Virus record (IMG/VR): IMGVR_UViG_3300034135_000005
Span: 1 to 40,667 of that record
Origin: a virus
Strand: one strand, 5' to 3'
Length of the DNA stretch: 40,667 nt
Below, in pieces: positions 1-40,667 of this stretch (within the stretch, counting starts at the first letter, position 1; every line of letters begins with the position of its first letter). A model generated the notes under the pieces. The model made no database searches and was not told the origin of the DNA. It saw only the letters and a list, made by a program, of their open reading frames with translations. Both the position numbers and the translations under genes were made by a program.

Positions 1-127
1 TTGGAATGCGCGATGCCCTTCGGCCACGCACAAGTTGGTCCTGATATTTCTCGCGAACGGCACGCCGCAGCTCGGCTATGCCGCGAACCTCGAATGGATC
101 GGCATGTGCGAGTTCGCCGGCTATGAC
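1..127 (+). repeat. Terminal overlap, identical to 40541-40667 (circular closure)
   Basis: Base-by-base comparison of the first and last 127 nt shows no mismatch. Confidence 0.95.
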
Positions 128-1456: not shown

Positions 1457-2050
1457 ATGAGCGATATGGCGCGTCCTAAGGACCGGGCTGGCGGGCTTCG
1501 CCCTGAGCCTGCTGCGCAGTCTCAGCCTGCCGGCGCTCATCCCTCGCGCAAGCTGCAAGCAGCGATCGACGCAGGGCGTGAGCAGGGGAGGCTAGCCCTG
1601 TTCTTCGGTGCGAACCCAATGGGCCACTACCTCCACCACCCAAGCGGTCAGAAGATTTGGAATAACTGCGATGTGCCCGCTTTGCCGTGGAACGTAGGTC
1701 TTATGGACGGGGGCTTGCTCAAGAACGGCAAGCGGCCGGACGTGTACGATGGCAAAGTCTATTGGACTGTGGGCGGCCTATCGCTTTGGTATGCATTCTT
1801 CTGGTGGGATAGATCCGGCGACACACGCCGAGCTTCCAACTCCGGGTTCTATGTGCGCGGTTTCGGTTGGCCTGAAACCACGGCGGCGTTCGAGTACGCC
1901 TGCTCGCAATTCCCTCGCATAGTCGCAAGGCAGCATCACCCGCTGGTCCTCCAGGCTCCCCGCGATAGCGACGGAAGCCCGCAGGGCGGAGACGGCGAAG
2001 CTGGCTCCGTGCGTAGCACGACGGCGCGGGCCGAAGGCATCGCCCAATGA
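1457..2050 (+). CDS. Hypothetical protein; last ~30 codons are repeat element copy A
   Basis: RBS GAGAGGAAGG before the ATG and high third-position GC. The N-terminal MSDMAR leader resembles that of the PAPS-reductase-like gene at 38443. Confidence 0.7.
   Translation: MSDMARPKDRAGGLRPEPAAQSQPAGAHPSRKLQAAIDAGREQGRLALFFGANPMGHYLHHPSGQKIWNNCDVPALPWNVGLMDGGLLKNGKRPDVYDGKVYWTVGGLSLWYAFFWWDRSGDTRRASNSGFYVRGFGWPETTAAFEYACSQFPRIVARQHHPLVLQAPRDSDGSPQGGDGEAGSVRSTTARAEGIAQ
1961..2045 (+). repeat. Mini-hairpin repeat element, copy A
   Basis: CGCGATAGCGA...GGCATCGCCC. Shares a perfect 28-nt block (2018-2045) with copy B. Contains CGC-GATA-GCG, GCCC-GCA-GGGC, GGC-GAA-GCT and GCC-GAA-GGC stems. Confidence 0.8.
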
Positions 2051-19973: not shown

Positions 19974-20992
19974 TGGCCGTCACGATCACCTATCGGCTGA
20001 AGCACGCCTACAAGACCGCGGCGGAGTGGACCGCGGCGGACCCGGTGTTGCTTGCCGGTGAGTATGGCATCGAGAGCGACACCAAGAAGCGCAAGCTCGG
20101 CGACGGCGTGACGGCTTGGACCGCGCTCGACTACGACGGCGCGTTAGGTGCTGCGCTGACGGCGTTGAACGGGCTCACCCCGGCGGCGGATCGTGTGCCG
20201 TATTTCACCGGGGCGAGTTCGGCTGCGCTGGCGACGTTCACGGCGTTCGGTCGGTCGCTGATCGACGACGCCGACGCCGCGGCGGGCCGAGCGACTTTGG
20301 GGGCTGCCGGTCTGGCCGGTGGCAATTCCTTCACCGGCAACCAAGGGGTCACCAACAACCAAGCCGGCAATACTGCGCTCGACGTGACCAACACCAGCGC
20401 ATCGGGGTTCGGGCTGTACCTACAGGGCGGCGGCGTCAGCAACTACATCGCCAATTTCTGCGACTACACCGGCGCATCGGTGTTGCAGATCACCTCCACC
20501 TTTTTCCGGCCGGGGACCGACAACACGGTCAACCTGGGCTCGGGCAGCAACCGCCTCGCGCTGGTCGTTTCGGCGGGTGGCGTGGTGACCACCTCGGACG
20601 AGACGCACAAGGCCGAGATCGGGCCAATCCCCGATGCCGTGCTTGATGCTTGGGCGGATGTCGAATGGCTGCGCTTCAAGGTAGACGGTGGCATCCGATG
20701 GCACACGGGTGTCGTGGCGCAGCGGATCATCCGCGTGTTCAAGCGCCACAGCCTCGACGCCACGGAATACGGCCTGCTGTGCCGGGAGTCGTGGGGAGCG
20801 ACCCGCGCCCGCAAAGCGCAACTAGACAAAGAGGGAAGGGTGGTTCGCCCTGCCGTTGCGAAGCGATCTGCAGGCTCCATCTGGATGGTTCGCTACGATG
20901 AGGCGAGCGCGATGGAGCACGCCCTGAACCGCCGTGAGCGCGCGCGGATGCGGGCTGAGATCGACGAACTTCGCCGGCTTCTTGCCGGCTAA
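19973..20992 (+). CDS. Tail fibre with Mtd-N-like N-terminus and C-terminal S74 intramolecular chaperone
   Basis: N-terminus TAAEWTAADPVLLAGEYGIESDTKKRKLGDGVTAWTAL. S74 signature TTSDETHKAEIGPIP..VEWLRFKV. Confidence 0.85.
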   Translation: MAVTITYRLKHAYKTAAEWTAADPVLLAGEYGIESDTKKRKLGDGVTAWTALDYDGALGAALTALNGLTPAADRVPYFTGASSAALATFTAFGRSLIDDADAAAGRATLGAAGLAGGNSFTGNQGVTNNQAGNTALDVTNTSASGFGLYLQGGGVSNYIANFCDYTGASVLQITSTFFRPGTDNTVNLGSGSNRLALVVSAGGVVTTSDETHKAEIGPIPDAVLDAWADVEWLRFKVDGGIRWHTGVVAQRIIRVFKRHSLDATEYGLLCRESWGATRARKAQLDKEGRVVRPAVAKRSAGSIWMVRYDEASAMEHALNRRERARMRAEIDELRRLLAG

Positions 20993-24068: not shown

Positions 24069-24658
24069 CCGCGGTCAACCGCAAGCCAGTCTTTCAGGCC
24101 GTGCGCGCGCTTCGGAACGGGCAGGTCTTCACGCTAGCCGAGGTGAAGCTGCTAGACGCTGCGATCGACGAGGCGATGGGGGGTGACACCCGCGTCGATA
24201 CCCCACCGACCGGACGGCAGGTGAGCAAGCGCGGCATCGATTTGATGCACGCCTTTGAGGGGTGCCGCCTTGATGCGTACCCGGACCCGGGCAGCAGCGA
24301 CGGCAACCCTTGGACGATTGGCTGGGGCAGCACCGGCCCCGGCATCGCTAAGGGCGTACGGTGGACGCAGGCGCAAGCTGACGAGCGGTTCGCGCGGGAT
24401 CTGCGAAAGTATGCGGACGAGGTGAGCAAGGCGATCGGCAGCGCGCCGACTGACCAAAGCCAGTTCGATGCCCTAGTCGCATTCCATTACAACACCGGCA
24501 AGATCGCCAGCGCCACGCTCACCAAGAAGCACAAGGCGGGCGACTACGCGGGTGCGGCTGCCGAGTTCGCCCGGTGGGTCCGAAACGACGGCAAGGTGAT
24601 GAAAGGCCTTGTCCGCCGCCGCGCCGCCGAGGCCGCGCTTTATCTGGCAGACGGCTGA
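24065..24658 (+). CDS. Endolysin, GH24 phage lysozyme
   Basis: E-D-T triad context HAFEGCRLDAYPDPG..WTIGWG, plus ALVAFHYNTG and GLVRRRAAE. Confidence 0.9.
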   Translation: MTAVNRKPVFQAVRALRNGQVFTLAEVKLLDAAIDEAMGGDTRVDTPPTGRQVSKRGIDLMHAFEGCRLDAYPDPGSSDGNPWTIGWGSTGPGIAKGVRWTQAQADERFARDLRKYADEVSKAIGSAPTDQSQFDALVAFHYNTGKIASATLTKKHKAGDYAGAAAEFARWVRNDGKVMKGLVRRRAAEAALYLADG

Positions 24659-25934: not shown

Positions 25935-26342
25935 CTAGGTGTGGGCGATGCCGTTCCGGCCCGCGCTGTCGCCCTTCGGGTCGAGCCCTACGGTCTCGCC
26001 GGCTTCGCCGCTTCCATCGCTATCGCGGGGTGCGAACATAACCGTGTTCCAAAGCGCGTTGCCGCAGCCCGCGAACCGGTAACTGCTACTCCACCCACCG
26101 ATGACGACGTCGGTAACTGTCAGTTCTTGCCCCGGTTCGAAGCATAGCTTCGCCTCGTTGAGTTCGAAGGCGTAGCCGTTTGCCGCTAGGAAGATGACGG
26201 CCTCGCCCACGCACGCCATACCAAGGGCGCGCGGGTCCATGCGCGAGGGATCGAAACCCGAAGGGCGACGATCCGTAGGAGCGTCGTGCGTAAAAAGAGA
26301 GCCCGGTGCCAACGGCACGCGCCCATCCTGATTATCGCTCAT
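25935..26342 (-). CDS. Hypothetical protein; last ~30 codons are repeat element copy C
   Basis: ATG 26342 (MSDNQDG) with GGAGATGGAAG upstream. No recognisable domain. Confidence 0.65.
   Translation of the reverse strand: MSDNQDGRVPLAPGSLFTHDAPTDRRPSGFDPSRMDPRALGMACVGEAVIFLAANGYAFELNEAKLCFEPGQELTVTDVVIGGWSSSYRFAGCGNALWNTVMFAPRDSDGSGEAGETVGLDPKGDSAGRNGIAHT
25943..26027 (-). repeat. Mini-hairpin repeat element, copy C (module order permuted)
   Basis: Reverse complement reads CGCGATAGCGATGGAAGC GGCGAAGCC.. CCCGAAGGG ..GCGCGGGCCGGAACGGCATCGCCC. Confidence 0.75.
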
Positions 26343-27241: not shown

Positions 27242-28333
27242 CTAACGCCTTGCTCTAGAACGGGAAACAGCATCCGCGCTGCTGGTCGGTTCGGGACTAT
27301 TCCGGTGATTGCCTGCAACCAGCGCGGCGCGCACGTCATCCTCGAGCGCATGGGCGTACCGAGCAGTCGTCTTCAGGTCGGTGTGGTTGAGAAGCTTCTG
27401 GACGGCGCGAAGATTGCCGCTGCCGCGCAGGGTGCGCGTCGCGCGCGTGTGACGCAGATCGTGGAAGCGGAACGCCTCTATCCCCGCGACCTCAAGCGCG
27501 CGCATCCAGTGCCGCCGCCAACCGTCACGGCTGAACGGATACCGCTCCCCCTTCAGCCGCCGCGCTTGGCCGGCTTTGGCGGGGGCGGGGCGGAGACAGA
27601 CGTAGGTGAATACCTGCGGGCAAACCTTGGGCTGGTTGGCGATCAGCGCCACAGCGTCCGGCAGGAGCGGGATGGTGTGCTTCCCGCCACCCTTGACGCT
27701 TAGCGTCGCGCGGCCGGCTCCGAGATCCACGTCGGCCCAGCGCAGCAAACGGACTTCGCTAAGCCGCTGCCCGGTCATCAGGGCGAACGACACCAGCGGG
27801 AGAAGATTGTCGGGCAGGGCGTCGAAGAGCCGCGACTCTTCAGCCTCAGACAGCTCACGGACGTGTTCCGGCTTCTCCGGCAGGAAGAGCGACTTCCACT
27901 CGATTGGCGCAACGTCGAAGTCACGGGCGGCAATGTAGCGCCACACAGTGCGGGCAACCTGCACCTCCCGGTTCACGCTGGCGTTCGCGCGCCCATTGCG
28001 GCGCCGCGCCACATGCCGATCGAAGTCGCGCAAGGTTACGTCGCCAAGCAGCACGTTCTTGCCGAGCCCCTTGATGAGAGCGGCGAGCTGATAGTCGAGG
28101 GTGCCGGCGTCGCGGCGATACTGCCCGCGCTCGGTCCACCACGTTCCGCACGCGTCGTTGACGGTGATCGCTGGCTTCGTGTCATCGCCTAGTGCGACCT
28201 TCCGCCGCTCTTCAGCTTCGAAGCGCTGTGCGTCGCGCTTCGACGTGCAGCTCGTGCTTCCATGAAACCGACGACCTTTGAACTGGAAGTCGTACTGGAA
28301 GAACGGGCTTTTGGCGTGCTTGTAGACGGACAT
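27242..28333 (-). CDS. int: Tyrosine integrase
   Basis: MSVYKHAKSPFFQYDF..; catalytic region HDLRHTRATR..LLNHTDLKTTARYAH. Adjacent to attP. Confidence 0.95.
   Translation of the reverse strand: MSVYKHAKSPFFQYDFQFKGRRFHGSTSCTSKRDAQRFEAEERRKVALGDDTKPAITVNDACGTWWTERGQYRRDAGTLDYQLAALIKGLGKNVLLGDVTLRDFDRHVARRRNGRANASVNREVQVARTVWRYIAARDFDVAPIEWKSLFLPEKPEHVRELSEAEESRLFDALPDNLLPLVSFALMTGQRLSEVRLLRWADVDLGAGRATLSVKGGGKHTIPLLPDAVALIANQPKVCPQVFTYVCLRPAPAKAGQARRLKGERYPFSRDGWRRHWMRALEVAGIEAFRFHDLRHTRATRTLRGSGNLRAVQKLLNHTDLKTTARYAHALEDDVRAALVAGNHRNSPEPTSSADAVSRSRARR
27289..27305 (+). repeat. attP arm-type repeat (P' arm, inside the 3' end of int)
   Basis: GTTCGGGACTATTCCGG, identical to 27066-27082. Confidence 0.65.
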
Positions 28334-28858: not shown

Positions 28859-29357
28859 GATCGGGTCCAAGTGCGGTGCGGGCGCGAATGGCGGCGGCAA
28901 TGTCGTTGCAGGCATCGACGTAAGCGTCCTTGGGCGAGAATACGTCGTGGAAGTCCTTGCTTTGCGTGTCGCGCTCATCCTCTGCGATCAGGGCGCACGC
29001 CTCACGCTCGGAATCGGCTGCTGCGTTGCGGTGGGCGGCAGCGCGCGCCATGATATGCCGGTGCATGTATTCAGGGATCGACGCCCATGTGTCCTCGTCG
29101 AGCCAGTCGCGGTCGGATTGCTGGGCGCGGCCGATCCAGTGGCGTGCGCCATTGCTATCGGGGCGAGAAATGATCCCCTCCGCTTCCATACGCTCAATGT
29201 ATCGGCAGGCCTGATTGTAGCCGACGCCCATCTTGCGCTGAAGGTGGGACGTGGAGCCGCTACGACCGATCTCTGCGATGCTGACGGCCTTGGCATACCG
29301 CACCATTGCCCAGTCGTGCTTGTCCCGCTGTTCTACAGTCAGTGTATTGTTGGTCAT
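28851..29357 (-). CDS. FtsK-gamma (KOPS-binding winged-helix) domain protein
   Basis: YAKAVSIAEIGRSGSTSHLQRKMGVGYNQACRYIERMEAEGIISRPDSNGARHW matches the FtsK gamma signature (StS.lQR...iGYnrAarlie.mE..Giv). Confidence 0.75.
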   Translation of the reverse strand: MTNNTLTVEQRDKHDWAMVRYAKAVSIAEIGRSGSTSHLQRKMGVGYNQACRYIERMEAEGIISRPDSNGARHWIGRAQQSDRDWLDEDTWASIPEYMHRHIMARAAAHRNAAADSEREACALIAEDERDTQSKDFHDVFSPKDAYVDACNDIAAAIRARTALGPDHV

Positions 29358-29947
29358 TGGCTGGACCCGGAATTAGAGGGGGCGATGCCTTCGGCCCGCG
29401 CCGTCGTGAACGAAGCCGCATTCGCGTCTTCGCCCTTCGGGTGCTCATCGCTATCGCGAAGCATACGGTGCAGCTTGATCTGAAGGACTTTGGCTTCGGC
29501 CAAGTCTTCAGGAATGTCGCGGATGGGAATGCCAACCGCTTCATTCAAAAGGCGCTTGGCGTGATAAAGCAGTTCGCGCTCAGGGTTATCGCGACGCCAT
29601 CTCTGGATACGCGCGTAGATCGCGGCATAATGCTTGGAGCGGTAGCCCTTGCGGCGCGCATTAATCACCGCCTTGTTCGCTATGTAGCGATCCTTCGCTC
29701 GCGCGCTTATCTGTTCGGCGTTGTTCTGACGATATGCACGGGCAGCAGCGACGCGCGAATCCTTGTGCTTGGCGTAGTCGGCGCGAATGCGGGCGCGCGC
29801 CTCATCTGGCGCAGCATCGTAAGCCGCTTTTTTGGCAGCCAACCTAGCTGCCCTGTGCCGGGCGTAAGCAGCCCTTTGCCGTGCTTTGTTGCGCTCGGCG
29901 TTCTTGTGCCAATTCGCACGGCGAGCTTCCGGGTCGCGATAGGGCAT
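29354..29947 (-). CDS. Basic repeat protein related to the N-terminal half of the 12917 HNH but lacking an HNH core; ends in repeat element copy B
   Basis: Repeats ARAYRQNNAEQ, IQRWRRDNPERE, RRANWHKNAERN. No HNH motif. C-terminus RDSDEHPKGEDANAASFTTARAEGIAPSNSGSSQ. Confidence 0.7.
   Translation of the reverse strand: MPYRDPEARRANWHKNAERNKARQRAAYARHRAARLAAKKAAYDAAPDEARARIRADYAKHKDSRVAAARAYRQNNAEQISARAKDRYIANKAVINARRKGYRSKHYAAIYARIQRWRRDNPERELLYHAKRLLNEAVGIPIRDIPEDLAEAKVLQIKLHRMLRDSDEHPKGEDANAASFTTARAEGIAPSNSGSSQ
29380..29458 (-). repeat. Mini-hairpin repeat element, copy B
   Basis: Reverse complement reads CGCGATAGCGATGAGCACCCGAAGGGCGAAGACGCGAATGCGG..ACGACGGCGCGGGCCGAAGGCATCGCCC. Confidence 0.8.
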
Positions 29948-29950
29948 GTC

Positions 29951-30298
29951 CTAAGCCTTGACCTTGCAATGGGGGGACTTGCACCCGAGAGCGTCAGCCT
30001 CAGTGACGCGCTCGTCGCACTGATCGCACCAGATCAGGCCATCCGCGTCGGGGGCGGGAAGCGCATTGCGGGGGTCGTCTGCCGCACCGATGAGCATAGC
30101 GCCAGCAATAGGCTGGTCCTTACCCATTTGCGCCAAGCGCAAAGCGGTATTCACCTCAACCGCCAGAGAATTGTTGATCTGCGCCGCCACCTTTGAGATC
30201 GCGTTAGCCTGGTCGGCCTCAATGTTGCCGCGCCGGATGTCTTGCATGACCTCCGCAAGAAAGCCGCGCAGATCGCCAGCGGTCTTGATCCGCGTCAC
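29951..30298 (-). CDS. Hypothetical protein with C-terminal Cys cluster
   Basis: GTGA-coupled start. CDQCDERV..CKSPHC motif. Confidence 0.6.
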   Translation of the reverse strand: MTRIKTAGDLRGFLAEVMQDIRRGNIEADQANAISKVAAQINNSLAVEVNTALRLAQMGKDQPIAGAMLIGAADDPRNALPAPDADGLIWCDQCDERVTEADALGCKSPHCKVKA

Positions 30299-30504
30299 GA
30301 CGCGTTCTCCTGCGAAAGTCGATTGAAGCCCGAAGGGTGAAGACCGGAACGGGCTTCATCGCGAAGCGACGAAAGCGCGGTGCCGAAGGCATTCGCCATG
30401 ACTTCGGATCGCCACAAAGGATCAACCCTATCCCTCCTCATCCTCTCCACGAGGACTCGAGCGACATGCTCATCATTGGCAATGGTTCTGATGGTAGCCA
30501 TCAT
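30295..30504 (-). CDS. Small hypothetical protein (69 aa)
   Basis: ATG 30504 with AAGGA upstream. Confidence 0.5.
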   Translation of the reverse strand: MMATIRTIANDEHVARVLVERMRRDRVDPLWRSEVMANAFGTALSSLRDEARSGLHPSGFNRLSQENAS

Positions 30505-31385: not shown

Positions 31386-31588
31386 CAGATCCTCACGAAC
31401 TTGCCGGCGGCGTCGCGGGGTAGCGCAGACGCCACCTCGCCACTCGTCGGTATCTCGTCGAGCGAGGCGCGTTCCGGCTGCCCCCGACGACGGCGCTTGT
31501 AGTTCGTCTTGGCAAGGCGGACGCTAGGGTCCGACCAATAGCGGTCGGCCTTCTGCATTAGCCTGTGCCGGGGCGTCTTGGCGGTCAT
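31385..31588 (-). CDS. Small basic hypothetical protein
   Basis: Start and stop both overlap neighbouring genes (TGATG). Confidence 0.5.
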   Translation of the reverse strand: MTAKTPRHRLMQKADRYWSDPSVRLAKTNYKRRRRGQPERASLDEIPTSGEVASALPRDAAGKFVRI

Positions 31589-32253
31589 CAGCCGGCCCTC
31601 AGCACGTTGGGCGCGGTGTTCTCATTCGCCGGCACGTAAAGGGCGCGCAGCCGATCGCAGGTGCGGTCAACGTCGGCGATGAATGACGTGACCTCACGCT
31701 CAAGCTCGGCGATGCGCTCGGCGTCGCGAGGCACGCGCTGAACGAACAGCCGCAGTTCTTCCGGCATCCGCGGATCGTAGGACACGAAGTCGCACCATGT
31801 CCGACCGGTGCAAGCGAGCTGCCACTGCATCTGGACGTGGTATTTGTCCGCGATGGTGCCGCTCAGCAGCGTTTCGATGTGTGTGGCGGTGTTGGGGCAC
31901 TTGATCTCAAGCAGCCCGTCCGCGCCGATCAGCCCGTCCGGCGAAGCGCCCGACAGGACGACGCTTGGGTGATCGACAAAGCCGACTTCCTCAACGTCCA
32001 CGTCCTTCATGAAGCTATATGCGGCGCGAGCGTCCGGCTCGTGATCCGTGCCCCACTGCATCGCGGCGTTGCTGAAGCTGTCCGCCCGCTGCCCGGTCAG
32101 GCGCTCGCATACCAACTGCGCCGCGTAGTTCGCCCTGGAGGCGCTGTAGCCGCTCTTCGTGCGCGCCACGATGTCAGACACCCGCGAAGCCGTGGCCTTG
32201 CCTAGACGGGCCTGAAACCACGCCTCCGTGCCCTGCTCGACAACGGCACTCAC
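31588..32253 (-). CDS. YqaJ-type (lambda Exo-like) recombination exonuclease
   Basis: GTEAWFQARLGKATASRVSD..WGTDHEPDARAAY..ASPDGLI..LLEIKCP..QMQWQLACTG. Confidence 0.85.
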   Translation of the reverse strand: MSAVVEQGTEAWFQARLGKATASRVSDIVARTKSGYSASRANYAAQLVCERLTGQRADSFSNAAMQWGTDHEPDARAAYSFMKDVDVEEVGFVDHPSVVLSGASPDGLIGADGLLEIKCPNTATHIETLLSGTIADKYHVQMQWQLACTGRTWCDFVSYDPRMPEELRLFVQRVPRDAERIAELEREVTSFIADVDRTCDRLRALYVPANENTAPNVLRAG

Positions 32254-32993
32254 TTGCTCGACGCCTTCTTGTCGAGCAGCCGCATTGCTTCAGTGAAGCG
32301 CGACGCCGGGAGGGCGGCGAGGGCGGTGACCTTCAGCGCTCCGCAGAACCGCGGCACGTTCGCCCCCACCTCGCTCGCGCGACGCTGCAACTCGTCAAGC
32401 TGCTCCATCGAAACGAGGTCAGGCGAGCCGCCGCGAAAACCGTCATCATCCTCGCCCTGCGTGGTGAGGTTGAGCAACGCGAAAGCCGTGTACCGCTTGC
32501 CGTAAGACGTGCTTGACCCGACCGCCTGAACGGCGTTCTTCGATCCACTGGTGTCGCTCGGCAGAGACAGTTCCGTCTCTTCGCTGTGCCCGTCGCGGTG
32601 CGAGAGGATGCCAGTGACAGCGATCTCGTTTTCGGTTCGGCGCGTCTTGAAGGTGAGCGCAAAGCCATGCTCGGCCAGGATCGGCCGGATTGCCTCGTTC
32701 ACGTCCTCCCACAACGCGTAGGTGGACTGCACCTTGCCCGCGCGATCCTTGATGCCCCCGCGCTCCGTGATGACGGGCAGGTTCGGTTGCATTGACGCCA
32801 GAGCCGCGTAGTATGCGCCCTTGGCGTTGCGAGCGTGAACGCGCTCCTGCATCTCGAGAAGCCGCTCCATCTTGTCGATGTCCACGGACGGATCGCGCGC
32901 CGCCCGCTCGATCACAGCGAGCAGTCCGCCTGAGTAGTCGGCGACCTCCGCGGTCTGCATCTCCATCCGCTCGGCTTTGGCAAGTGCGGTCAT
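32250..32993 (-). CDS. erf: ERF-family single-strand annealing protein
   Basis: STYALWEDVNEAIRPILAEHGFALTF..GILSHRDGHSEE..AVGSSTSYGKRYTAFALLNL. Confidence 0.8.
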   Translation of the reverse strand: MTALAKAERMEMQTAEVADYSGGLLAVIERAARDPSVDIDKMERLLEMQERVHARNAKGAYYAALASMQPNLPVITERGGIKDRAGKVQSTYALWEDVNEAIRPILAEHGFALTFKTRRTENEIAVTGILSHRDGHSEETELSLPSDTSGSKNAVQAVGSSTSYGKRYTAFALLNLTTQGEDDDGFRGGSPDLVSMEQLDELQRRASEVGANVPRFCGALKVTALAALPASRFTEAMRLLDKKASSK

Positions 32994-33127
32994 TACTGCG
33001 TCCTCATGTTTGCAAGCAGCCCAGGAAGGCGCTCAATAGCTTCACGAAACCCGTTGAAGATGGTGGGCAACGACACGGCAAAGCCGATCGCGAAGATGGC
33101 GGTGGGAAGGGCTTCATGGACGGTCAT
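32993..33127 (-). CDS. Small membrane protein (44 aa)
   Basis: ATGA-coupled start. TM segment LPTAIFAIGFAVSLPTIF. Confidence 0.45.
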   Translation of the reverse strand: MTVHEALPTAIFAIGFAVSLPTIFNGFREAIERLPGLLANMRTQ

Positions 33128-33477
33128 GCGCCGTCCCCGGTGCGCTCTTCGTCCCACTCGCGGTGCATGGCGATCATGGCCATCAGCAAGGGACGCATCC
33201 GCCAGTTGATGTCGTTCCGGATGGTGTTGACCAACGACAGCTCCCAATTTCGCGAGCGACGCGCGTCCTCGGACAGCTTCTGCGGGTACATCGTCTTGAG
33301 GTGATTGACCGCCTCTCGCCCGATGTTGCGCGCCATCTCGTCAAACAGGCGTCGAGCGCGCTGCTCCTGCGTCTCGCGCGAAGGATCGAAGCCCATCGGG
33401 GCGAGACCCGGAACGGGGCTCGACGGCGAAGCCGCGAGAGCCTGGCCCGTAGGGCGCGCCATATCGTGATCTACCAC
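33124..33477 (-). CDS. Hypothetical protein
   Basis: GTG start with GGGGAGA upstream. Coding-like composition. Confidence 0.55.
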   Translation of the reverse strand: MVDHDMARPTGQALAASPSSPVPGLAPMGFDPSRETQEQRARRLFDEMARNIGREAVNHLKTMYPQKLSEDARRSRNWELSLVNTIRNDINWRMRPLLMAMIAMHREWDEERTGDGA

Positions 33478-38254: not shown

Positions 38255-38446
38255 ATGATCCCGCTGCTATCCCGCATCTTGCGTAGGCGCAACGAACAGC
38301 CGGTGGATCCGATCGCAGAGGCATCACGCCGCCTCGACGCACACCGCGCCGCCAACATCGCCAAGCTCGACGAACCCTACCGCAAAGCCGGTCGCAAGGG
38401 CGCTGAAACCCGTCGCCTGCGCTTCATGGGGGAGGGGCGGTCATGA
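38255..38446 (+). CDS. Small basic hypothetical protein (63 aa)
   Basis: RBS GGAGGGG before ATG 38255. The track ORF upstream of it looks non-coding. Confidence 0.5.
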   Translation: MIPLLSRILRRRNEQPVDPIAEASRRLDAHRAANIAKLDEPYRKAGRKGAETRRLRFMGEGRS

Positions 38447-39369
38447 GCGACATGGCGCGTCGGCAAGCCGACCAGGCTCTTGCCCTACGGGCCGAGCCCG
38501 CAAGCGGTCTCGACGCTTCGCGCTTCAATCCTTCGCGCGACGACGACATTCAATTCGAGATGTTCGCCGTCGAGCGTCCGAGCATCGAGCAGATCGTCGC
38601 GGCGGGCCTCGCTCACAACCCGGTCGCTAAGTTCGCCATGTTCTCCAGCGGCGACGGCAGCTTGGCGGCAACTCATTGGGCGATGAACAACGTTCCCGGG
38701 TGCGAGGTGCTGCACATAAACACCGGCATCGGCATTGAGCGCAGCCGCCTGTTCGTGCGTGAGACTTGCGCGCGCGAAGGTTGGAAGCTGACCGAGGTGC
38801 GCGCCAAGGAGGACTGCGGTCAGGATTACGAGGAGATCGTCGCAGAGCACGGCTTCCCCGGCCCCGGCTCCCACGGCCTTATGTATCGCCGCCTGAAGGA
38901 GCGTTGCGTTGAGCTTGTAGTGCGCCAGCGCAAGACGGCCCGATCGGACAAGGTGATGCTGCTAACCGGCATCTGTCACGACGATAGCTATCGGCGCAGC
39001 GGCTACGGCGGGCGCGAGATCACCTTCAAGGGCGCGCAGATGTGGGTGAACCACCTCTATTGGGCGGGCCAGTCGTGGCGCGAACGATACGTCGCGAGCG
39101 TGAGCATCCCGCGCAACCCGGTGGCCGTAGAACTCGGCATGTCGGGTGAGTGCCTGTGCGGGGCGTTCGCCGGCAAGGGCGAGTTGCGCATCGTTCGCCG
39201 CGTCTGCCCCGCCACAGCCGATCGAATCCAGGCTTTGCAGCACCGCATCTCCAACCGGCACCCGTGGGGATGGGAGGACCGCCCGCCGCGCGATCGCGAC
39301 CTCGCCACCCCCGACTTCTTCGCTCCAATGTGCGTGAACTGCTTCAAATCCGAGAGGTTAGCTGCATGA
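38443..39369 (+). CDS. PAPS reductase / DndC-like ATP-pyrophosphatase family protein
   Basis: PP-loop-like FAMFSSGDGSLAATHW (compare SGGKDS). Family-typical length and Cys-rich C-terminus. Confidence 0.7.
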   Translation: MSDMARRQADQALALRAEPASGLDASRFNPSRDDDIQFEMFAVERPSIEQIVAAGLAHNPVAKFAMFSSGDGSLAATHWAMNNVPGCEVLHINTGIGIERSRLFVRETCAREGWKLTEVRAKEDCGQDYEEIVAEHGFPGPGSHGLMYRRLKERCVELVVRQRKTARSDKVMLLTGICHDDSYRRSGYGGREITFKGAQMWVNHLYWAGQSWRERYVASVSIPRNPVAVELGMSGECLCGAFAGKGELRIVRRVCPATADRIQALQHRISNRHPWGWEDRPPRDRDLATPDFFAPMCVNCFKSERLAA

Positions 39370-40518: not shown

Positions 40519-40667
40519 GCACTGACGCACTGGCGCATGTTTGGAATGCGCGATGCCCTTCGGCCACGCACAAGTTGGTCCTGATATTTCTCGCGAACGG
40601 CACGCCGCAGCTCGGCTATGCCGCGAACCTCGAATGGATCGGCATGTGCGAGTTCGCCGGCTATGAC
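40515..40667 (+). CDS. 5' part of the HTH-HNH endonuclease gene (continues at 2-487 across the circular junction)
   Basis: GTG 40515 overlaps the rusA stop (GTGA). The frame is continuous with position 2 once 40541 is mapped onto position 1. Confidence 0.8.
   Translation, partial: MSTDALAHVWNARCPSATHKLVLIFLANGTPQLGYAANLEWIGMCEFAGYD
40541..40667 (+). repeat. Terminal overlap, identical to 1-127
   Basis: Exact 127/127 identity. Confidence 0.95.

Follow-up and report, generated by a model that had tools for sequence, protein, structure and literature searches.

The closest described counterparts of the element analyzed in this work are the ssi and Frpo sequences and the minus-strand origins of filamentous phages. 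Frpo is a long imperfect hairpin, the stem of which presents a -35 box (TTGACA) and a -10 box (TATAAT) at promoter spacing (PMC11541004). The element, which we found in eight copies in the window (the whole stretch of 40,667 nt analyzed here, corresponding to the IMG/VR record IMGVR_UViG_3300034135_000005), shares with these signals the strand-specific folding and the position: in leading regions it lies on the transferred strand, in inoviruses on the packaged one. As in the case of ssi and Frpo, it is found upstream of ssb and ard-type genes, with synthesis that would run into the adjacent genes. On the other hand, it is an 85-nt GC-rich multi-branched junction and not a long hairpin that mimics a sigma-70 promoter; its GC-rich helices comprise 3-7 bp and no copy contains -35 or -10 boxes, and a Frpo-type ssDNA promoter was therefore rejected. 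As far as the sequences could be compared, the element has no sequence in common with the known ssi set, and unlike ssi and Frpo it also occurs in inverted pairs within the coding regions of a dsDNA phage.

Likeness of a different kind exists to the attC sites of integrons, which, as the element does, resemble recombination-type sites defined by the structure of ssDNA and made strand-selective by unpaired bases, with a variable terminal structure and a position at the 3' terminus of small cassette ORFs that lack a promoter. However, the R''(RYYYAAC)/R'(GTTRRRY) core sites and an integron integrase are absent and the element ends with (C/U)GCGAU... and ...AUCGCC, which led us to reject this candidate; moreover, its cassettes are bounded by two inverted non-identical copies instead of one direct copy, and its conserved core amounts to about 30 nt of sequence. 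REP/REPIN sequences, BIMEs, MITEs and RPEs are likewise short GC-rich palindromic repeats with compensatory evolution and alternating orientation, and proteins tolerate RPEs, like the element, when these are inserted in frame and add stretches of peptide. The element differs from all of them in the apparent lack of a consistent target-site duplication, in not being a high-copy chromosomal repeat, in its branched junction and in its conservation across phyla on mobile elements. REP/REPIN was rejected as a candidate because the fold is branched, there is no GTAG/RAYT signature, the window encodes no Y1 transposase and the Bradyrhizobium copies are not scattered.

Short conserved repeats that bound exchangeable gene modules are also known from the PeSL cassettes of T4-type phages and from the pdif modules of Acinetobacter plasmids, and pdif sites, like the copies of the element, alternate in orientation. 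However, PeSL consists of a promoter and a stem-loop in direct orientation and pdif of 28-bp XerC/D sites, and neither has a covarying multi-helix fold. Finally, the ITRs of parvoviruses and AAV fold into three-way-junction hairpins, T- or Y-shaped, in which each strand of a short gene-carrying unit terminates on its 3' side; their paired 3' terminus points outward, as in the cassettes described below. This likeness is geometric only; there is no Rep/HUH gene, and the cassettes are seen here only as parts of larger DNA molecules. Taken together, these comparisons make it plausible that the element belongs with the strand-specific structured DNA signals of mobile elements, in a function that is putative.

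The element represents a structured family of 78-100 nt (roughly 85 bases). The initial annotation had divided it into four modules, X, Y, Z and W, and on the strand that runs from X to W a structure-aware alignment gives the order P1-P2-H1-H2-H3-P2'-H4-P1', or, in sequence, 5' (C/U)-GCGAU-A-GCGAU-N-[GAAG or helix]-H1-H2-H3-[CGA or helix]-N'-AGCGC-GG-H4-AUCGC-C 3'. The 5-bp helix P1 closes the structure by uniting its ends (the first GCGAU with AUCGC), the termini being inverted repeats of 5-6 bp. In P2a the second GCGAU pairs with AGCGC, which leaves a conserved A.G mismatch; it is followed by the Watson-Crick pair N-N', for which all four combinations are observed, and above that by either a regular helix of 3-5 bp or a tandem sheared G.A motif (GA/GA). 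P2 bears the hairpins H1-H3, of which H2 has a conserved GAGAC...GGCUC frame with an additional A.G, while the fourth hairpin, H4, stacks beside P1. In copy C (25944-26027, minus strand), the structural alignment places P1 at 26026-26022 (GCGAU) and 25949-25945 (AUCGC) and P2a at 26020-26016 (GCGAU) and 25967-25963 (AGCGC), with G26015 paired to C25968; H1, H2 and H3 correspond to 26010-26000, 25998-25982 and 25980-25972, and H4 (GCCG-GAA-CGGC) to 25960-25950.

Two subtypes can be distinguished in the window. Subtype I comprises copies A, B and C, with the P1 helix GCGAU/AUCGC, and subtype II comprises copies 5, 7, 8 and D, with P1 GCGCG/CGCGC and P2a (A/G)GGAU/AGCC(U/C), so that the helices which do not vary inside subtype I are exactly those in which the two subtypes differ, and they do so in a compensatory manner. 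The covariation of P1 extends to GCGAA/UUCGC and, in IncW plasmids, to GCGUG/CACGC. The window and 99 further loci yielded 152 hits, and in the 143 distinct rows used for the pair counts double-sided changes occur at 25 of the 27 pairs (856 cells). Because the alignment had been fitted to the model, the share of pair cells that are paired is inflated: 97.3%, versus 69.2% in shuffled alignments (none of 500 reached the observed value) and 35-41% in slid controls. Even so, the fold is hardly in doubt, given the slid controls and how many types of pair occur.

The fold would not have been flagged by the energies of single sequences, which are unremarkable: with RNA and DNA parameters alike, the folding of either strand is not significant (z about -0.9 to -2.6). 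The folding that the initial annotation had proposed as a check thus lends no support with either parameter set, whereas the covariation supports the structure. Single-sequence folding could not separate the strands or the types of molecule either. On a plain MAFFT alignment RNAalifold recovered only the invariant pairs, because the variable hairpins were misaligned. Across the whole window, no family of Rfam 15 matches at the gathering threshold, the hammerhead, twister, pistol, hatchet and HDV-like ribozymes and the phage and MGE motifs included, and at E<=10 there was only noise on copies A and C and nothing on a Bradyrhizobium copy; a full-text literature search with the core sequences of the element returned only chance matches. 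The element is a robust and apparently undescribed structured family, without an Rfam entry.

Three copies at the 3' ends of ORFs had been reported in the initial annotation, and all three exist as described, copy C lying inside the interval 25935-26030 given for it; five others had been missed. Of our two covariance models, R1 finds eight copies on both strands of the window at E-values from 1e-7 to 1e-18, the next best match scoring 17 bits, and R2, built from 150 hits, finds the identical eight at 64-86 bits and nothing further at E<=0.05 (the seed was annotated by hand). Copy C, of 84 nt, scores 95 bits with R1 (E 1.7e-18) and 86 bits with R2. A ninth copy, hinted at by a repeat family at 38771-38797, proved to be ordinary coding sequence with no R2 match.

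The X motif recurs exactly in copies A and C, while copy B agrees with it only up to CGCGATAGCGATGA; none of 100 shuffles gave three matches at up to three mismatches. The W module was correctly described as GCC-GAA-GGC in copies A and B and GCCG-GAA-CGGC in copy C, which adds one base pair to H4. In other loci H4 varies from 3 to 6 bp, always with full compensation, so the pairing pattern behind this +2 change is a general one and the change itself is not a one-off. It is equally true that GCGCGGGCC is read as A-R-A in copy A and as S-A-G in copy C, and that the frame is restored later, GGCATCGCC being in the G-I-A frame in both. The slip arises because the internal hairpins differ in length while the total is 84 nt in each copy. 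On the other hand, the permutation proposed for copy C (X-Z-Y-W instead of X-Y-Z-W) disappears in the structure-aware alignment, in which the helices follow one another identically in copies A and C. The string Y (CCCGMAGGGCG) corresponds to H1 in copy A and to H3 in copy C, and the string Z (GGCGAAGCYGG) to the inner H2 hairpin in copy A and to H1 in copy C. All these hairpins are of the generic C-GNA-G type, and covariation of their stems produces similar strings in different hairpins; Y and Z are therefore generic mini-hairpins, not homologous modules that moved, and the permutation is not real. The argument that selection acts on DNA or RNA structure rather than on the peptide is strongly upheld by the covariation, by the use of three reading frames and by the existence of homologous genes without the tail.

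The carrier is a phage-like contig of about 40.5 kb. Because its first 127 bases recur at its end, we take it to be either terminally redundant or circularly permuted. Genes for an integrase, Erf, a YqaJ exonuclease, a large terminase and an O/DnaD-like replication protein mark it as a temperate tailed phage (siphophage). Its capsid gene is 74% identical at the DNA level to that of a Mesorhizobium phage, and this gene is all that the window has in common with the nearest isolated phage; a blastn search of isolated phages with copy A gave nothing relevant.

Six of the eight copies form head-to-head pairs, i.e. copies 7 and A (1468-2044), C and 8 (25944-26323) and B and 4 (29381-30397), each with its X ends turned toward the gene and its W ends away from it. 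The pair that surrounds the gene at 25935-26342 (minus strand) consists of copy C, which makes up its last codons, and copy 8 (26240-26323, plus strand; P1 GCGCG/CGCGC, P2a GGGAU/AGCCC), the reverse complement of which encodes the N-terminal part of the ORF; the core of the protein, extended at both ends by element sequence, matches phrog_8472, of unknown function. The gene at 1457-2050 (plus strand) has copy 7 (1468-1550, minus strand) as an N-terminal extension, read in frame from the reverse complement, and copy A (1961-2044, plus strand) as an exact in-frame insertion of 84 nt, one codon before the stop. Copy B (29381-29458, minus strand) lacks H3, is 78 nt long and encodes the C-terminal tail of the ORF at 29354-29947 (minus strand). 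Its partner, copy 4 (30311-30397, plus strand), has P1 GCGAA/UUCGC and is similar to subtype I; 13 nt separate its X end from the start of the ORF at 29951-30298 (minus strand). The two remaining copies are of subtype II: copy 5 (33375-33460, plus strand), where the minus-strand ATG at 33462-33460 abuts the W end and the ORF at 33124-33462 (minus strand) reads through, and copy D (38454-38539, minus strand), the reverse complement of which is read through by the ORF at 38443-39369 (plus strand) after its beginning, ATGAGCGACATG. In all four copies of subtype II an ATG on the opposite strand abuts the W end, and the ORF starts in frame with MAR...(D/N)PSR. The proteins that end in copies A, B and C are mutually unrelated and belong to no Pfam family, and protein C alone has a PHROG match, limited to its core.

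The arrangement is not peculiar to the window. Adjacent copies in the 100 sources are head-to-head in 45 cases, tail-to-tail in 19 and in tandem in 18, where random orientation predicts about 20, 20 and 41, respectively. Where the copies of a head-to-head pair are close together (196-1000 bp apart), the segment between them almost always contains a single uninterrupted reading frame, and such pairs join a GCGAU-type copy to one with a different type of P1, a combination biased by the use of GCGAU-type patterns to collect the loci. The unit formed by element, gene A and element (1460-2005) is the only part of the window similar to one other locus, L328, with unrelated flanks, and a copy is present in only one of the 80 TerL-related loci, which argues that the copies delimit exchangeable accessory-gene cassettes. 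The same 80 loci were scanned for empty sites and turned out to be too divergent upstream of TerL. In the flanks of copies from distant phyla no common protein partner was found. The covariance model may thus be used to mark the borders of such cassettes in temperate phages, where anti-defence or moron-type genes may lie.

Beyond the window, the family is widespread, with hundreds of copies in several phyla, including genomes of 39% GC. A search of plasmids revealed full-length, compensated members in the Pf-type filamentous phages of P. aeruginosa. There the element occupies the 3' end of PA0719, directly upstream of the gene for the ssDNA-binding protein, and it lies on the coding strand, which we take to be the packaged one from the biology of Inoviridae. 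PA0719 has been described as having a conserved N-terminus and divergent C-termini (PMC12328805). The element accounts for this divergence.

The IncW plasmid pMAK3 contains two copies on the plus strand, at 20085-20192 and 24091-24198. With oriT at about 16.0-16.5 kb and the ssb, DUF3560 and ArdC-like genes encoded by the minus strand, both copies are antisense to this gene block; their strand is the one that, followed 5' to 3' from oriT, passes stbABC before it reaches the block. This is presumably the transferred strand, according to the accepted polarity of R388 transfer, and with the direction assumed from R388 it is the template of the downstream genes for both copies. In plasmids of Roseomonas and Methylocystis the element is also antisense to ssb/DUF3560/DUF932 genes, with weaker scores (E 1e-3). 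In the ICEs of Bradyrhizobium and in Afipia one copy, or two in tandem, resides between the genes for an SLT transglycosylase and a MobA/VirD2-DUF3363 relaxase, on the template strand of the latter; the Bradyrhizobium copies have conserved ICE flanks and are not scattered, and on the strand of the element they are preceded, at about 40 nt, by a conserved sigma-54-like motif, TTGGCAG-N5-TTGCG. Thus the element is found on replicons of medical relevance (the Pf phages of P. aeruginosa and IncW plasmids of the R388 family), as well as on many environmental ICEs and prophages.

The alignment also indicates which strand folds. Among the cells that are not Watson-Crick pairs, G.A and A.G (55) far outnumber pyrimidine-pyrimidine combinations (10), and G.U (42) outnumbers A.C (22); the loops are GAA, GCA, GGA or GUA (GNA) on one strand only. 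Owing to this asymmetry and to the loops, which are specific to a single strand, we assign the fold to the strand that runs from X to W. GNA triloops closed by C-G dominate all four hairpins. Such triloops form exceptionally stable mini-hairpins in DNA, e.g. d(GCGAAGC), and are not known to confer special stability on RNA. G.U pairs make up only about 1.2% of the pair cells.

Because of the strand logic in mobile elements, the GNA triloops and the scarcity of G.U pairs, we favor a function in ssDNA. Judging by these sequence features, we put at roughly 50% the probability that the element functions as folded single-stranded DNA, possibly as a signal for priming or for expression from ssDNA. 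Its orientation relative to transcription is not fixed: of the copies in the window, three are sense and five antisense relative to the operons around them, and many IMG/VR copies adjoin the start of a gene on the opposite strand. A crude gene caller based on GC3 was too insensitive for determining orientation and served only to flag antisense cases. Its occurrence in Pf phages, IncW plasmids and Bradyrhizobium ICEs places it where one strand exists alone, and the lack of any Rfam match points in the same direction. However, a tailed dsDNA phage has no obligatory ssDNA stage, a priming function alone does not explain why the eight copies of the window are arranged in inverted pairs, and the short GC-rich helices could not mimic a sigma-70 promoter in the manner of Frpo. 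The context in Pf, on the sense strand, is equally compatible with an element of mRNA, the sigma-54-like motif of Bradyrhizobium would suit an independently transcribed small RNA, and the folding energies are as insignificant with DNA as with RNA parameters.

If the element acts as ssDNA, one may imagine the following scenario. It would fold on the strand that mobile elements expose, i.e. the strand that filamentous phages package, the one that conjugative plasmids and ICEs transfer, and the ssDNA intermediates of phage replication or recombination. There it would serve as a single-strand initiation signal, recruiting a putative conserved priming or transcription enzyme of the host, and synthesis would proceed from the element back over the adjacent gene. 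On each strand of a cassette the foldable copy lies on the 3' side of the gene, hence synthesis started at the element would run across that gene; the geometry of subtype II, on the template strand upstream of the gene, is that of the leading-region copies. In the temperate siphophage the copies mark where small accessory genes begin and end: at the 5' end the template strand carries a copy of subtype II, at the 3' end the coding strand carries one of subtype I, and the X ends of both face the gene. The conserved cores would also act as module boundaries for the exchange of gene cassettes. As the genome is tightly packed, the copies lie inside the first and last codons, where they are translated as harmless variable N- and C-terminal extensions. 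Such an ssDNA-active element would constitute a second class beside Frpo and ssi, structurally unrelated to them, and would provide a testable handle on how incoming single strands are converted to duplex and on their early expression.

Alternatively, the element could be a structured non-coding RNA, namely a cis element of mRNA (a 3' stabilizer or processing site), an independent small or antisense RNA, or possibly a new ribozyme or protein-binding RNA; we regard this as possible and hold it only tentatively. The multi-helix junction with its many invariant unpaired bases, the tandem G.A motif and the GNRA-like tetraloops of H4 would be at home in RNA, where the two-to-one ratio of G.U to A.C would also be expected, and copies A, B and C as well as the Pf copy are sense-oriented inside transcripts. 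The conserved sigma-54-like promoter motif on the same strand upstream of the Bradyrhizobium copies also speaks for RNA, but the known RpoN-dependent multicopy sRNAs of Bradyrhizobium, BjsR5 and BjsR6, were rejected as candidates, their probe sequences being unrelated to the element (PMC5082802). What weighs against RNA is above all the orientation of five of the eight copies in the window and of the leading-region copies of IncW, Roseomonas and Methylocystis, which are antisense, so that each would need its own promoter within a coding region. Furthermore, triloops rather than tetraloops predominate, G.U pairs are unusually rare, and Rfam contains no match. Should the element nevertheless act as RNA, it would be a well-supported and widespread structured family absent from Rfam.

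It is unlikely, in our opinion, that we are dealing with a purely selfish miniature mobile element, comparable to MITEs, PATEs or the Rickettsia palindromic elements, which inserts at gene termini, folds only for its own ssDNA transposition by an enzyme supplied in trans, and keeps the reading frame owing to purifying selection on the host gene. The presence of the element does vary between homologous genes and it is sporadic among related phages, as in the TerL-related loci, its termini (P1) are inverted repeats, and it is found in several phyla, also in genomes of 39% GC; copy A is a precise in-frame insertion, and more copies than expected have a length divisible by three (64 of 143, p=0.003). 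However, the only recombinase encoded in the window is a phage-type integrase (27242-28333), and a search for genes of a transposase, HUH enzyme, Y1 transposase or Rep in the window found none. There is also no consistent target-site duplication at the junctions of copies A, B, C, 7 and 8. A MITE would be expected to scatter, whereas the element has fixed backbone positions and conserved flanks in IncW plasmids, Pf phages and Bradyrhizobium ICEs, and the regular pairing of a 5' copy of subtype II with a 3' copy of subtype I would not be expected from independent insertions.

It is tantalizing to consider the inverted pairs of non-identical copies as the ends of a hitherto unrecognized mobile gene cassette, in which the 3' end of each strand would carry a folded, self-paired ssDNA structure that primes the conversion to duplex, and which would carry small genes back and forth between ICEs, plasmids and both tailed and filamentous phages across bacterial phyla. 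This scenario, suggested by the geometry of the pairs, is quite doubtful, and the ssDNA signal discussed above remains our preferred reading.

The weakest explanation is that the element encodes peptide tags common to unrelated phage proteins (N-terminal MAR...DPSR and C-terminal RDSDGS...EGIAQ), e.g. for targeting or degradation: although ORFs read through all eight copies or terminate inside them, the first codons of subtype I mostly encode R-D-S-D and the four copies of subtype II are all in frame from the abutting ATG, this reading is already effectively refuted, and hardly deserves further credit, given that the conserved 3' core is translated in three frames, that many copies are intergenic (in Bradyrhizobium and IncW plasmids), that substitutions are explained by nucleotide pairing and not by codon usage, and that homologues without tails are the rule, the tails lying outside any Pfam or PHROG family. 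The use of the frames is illustrated by the 33 IMG/VR loci retrieved with the pattern CGCGATAGCGAYG...GGCATCGCC, where the core, with the frame anchored on the first codon, is read as EGIA, RHRP or ASP, so that no C-terminal peptide motif is conserved in one frame; statistics on the frames near the copies are confounded, as antisense frames also stay open in high-GC DNA. The tails are by-products of the element, which explains an annotation artefact, i.e. unrelated hypothetical proteins with similar low-complexity tails, including the C-termini of PA0719. In-frame insertion within ORFs, with homologues that lack the insert, is what is seen in RPEs and also here. Homologues of the protein A core were found in 13 loci, and only the closest carries the element; the other 12 end with ...PLVLQ(D/E)P followed by zero to few residues. 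Since these element-free homologues end at the same point, the tail of protein A is an in-frame insertion and not an ancestral domain, and removal of the 84 nt of copy A indeed restores the ending ...LQAPQ*, as in those 12. Some of the IMG/VR copies are found in tiny ORFs.

The copies of subtype II, which lie at the 5' ends of genes and whose reverse complement is read as an N-terminal extension, for the most part resemble each other also in what precedes them. Three of the four in the window have ahead of them, on the coding strand, the same leader ATGAGCGA(Y), which encodes M-S-D (1457-1468, 26342-26324 and 38443-38454), and each of these three is likewise preceded by a Shine-Dalgarno sequence, GGAAG or GGAGG. 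It is possible that the 5' copy and a portable translation start travel as one. As for a possible means of exchange, the phage encodes a recombination system that both produces and anneals single-stranded DNA, with the gene for an Erf single-strand annealing protein adjoining that for a YqaJ exonuclease (31588-32993). This system could use the conserved cores of the element as short homologies in cassette exchange.

Outside the window, the element forms the 3' part of PA0719, an annotated ORF labeled "putative toxin" in some records, at the PA0719/PA0720 junction of the Pseudomonas aeruginosa Pf prophage RF (locus L341, 589-680). The element probably explains the divergent C-termini of PA0719, part of which may be an annotation artefact. 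In about 60 loci from Bradyrhizobium and Afipia, where the element resides on ICEs, a conserved TTGGCAG-N5-TTGCG is found approximately 40 nt upstream of the element and on the same strand (in locus L147, 5215-5260, minus strand; at equivalent positions in the others). Its spacing is that of the sigma-54 -24/-12 promoter elements, and its reverse complement, CAACTGCCAA, is similar to the nick core ATCCTG/CCA of the VirD2/RP4-type oriT. The motif could be a promoter, or it could be the ICE's nic site.

GC-rich copies of the element occur also in low-GC genomes (39-48% GC) from other phyla, including Saprospiraceae (loci L166, L220 and L243), which suggests strong constraint or recent horizontal transfer. 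Their invariant core is unchanged; the inner domain differs, H1 being replaced by a long hairpin, GGCUC...GAGCC. Six IMG/VR loci (L037, L043, L051, L054, L057 and L058) match GATAGCGATG...AGCGCGGGCC, but what follows the match is another conserved sequence (GTGCNGCNTAYTATACCAGCGCGCT...); they look like a protein-coding region with a chance match to the pattern, or a distant relative.

Protein B (29354-29947), whose C-terminal tail is encoded by copy B, has no match in Pfam or PHROG and consists mostly of repeats of a basic motif of the (A/R)xxY...N.E type (RAAYARHRAARLAAKKAAYDA..., AAARAYRQNNAEQISARAKDRYIANKA...). Finally, an exact direct repeat of 127 nt is present at both ends of the window (1-127 and 40541-40667). 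The contig, a genome of 40,540 bp, is either closed into a circle or terminally redundant.
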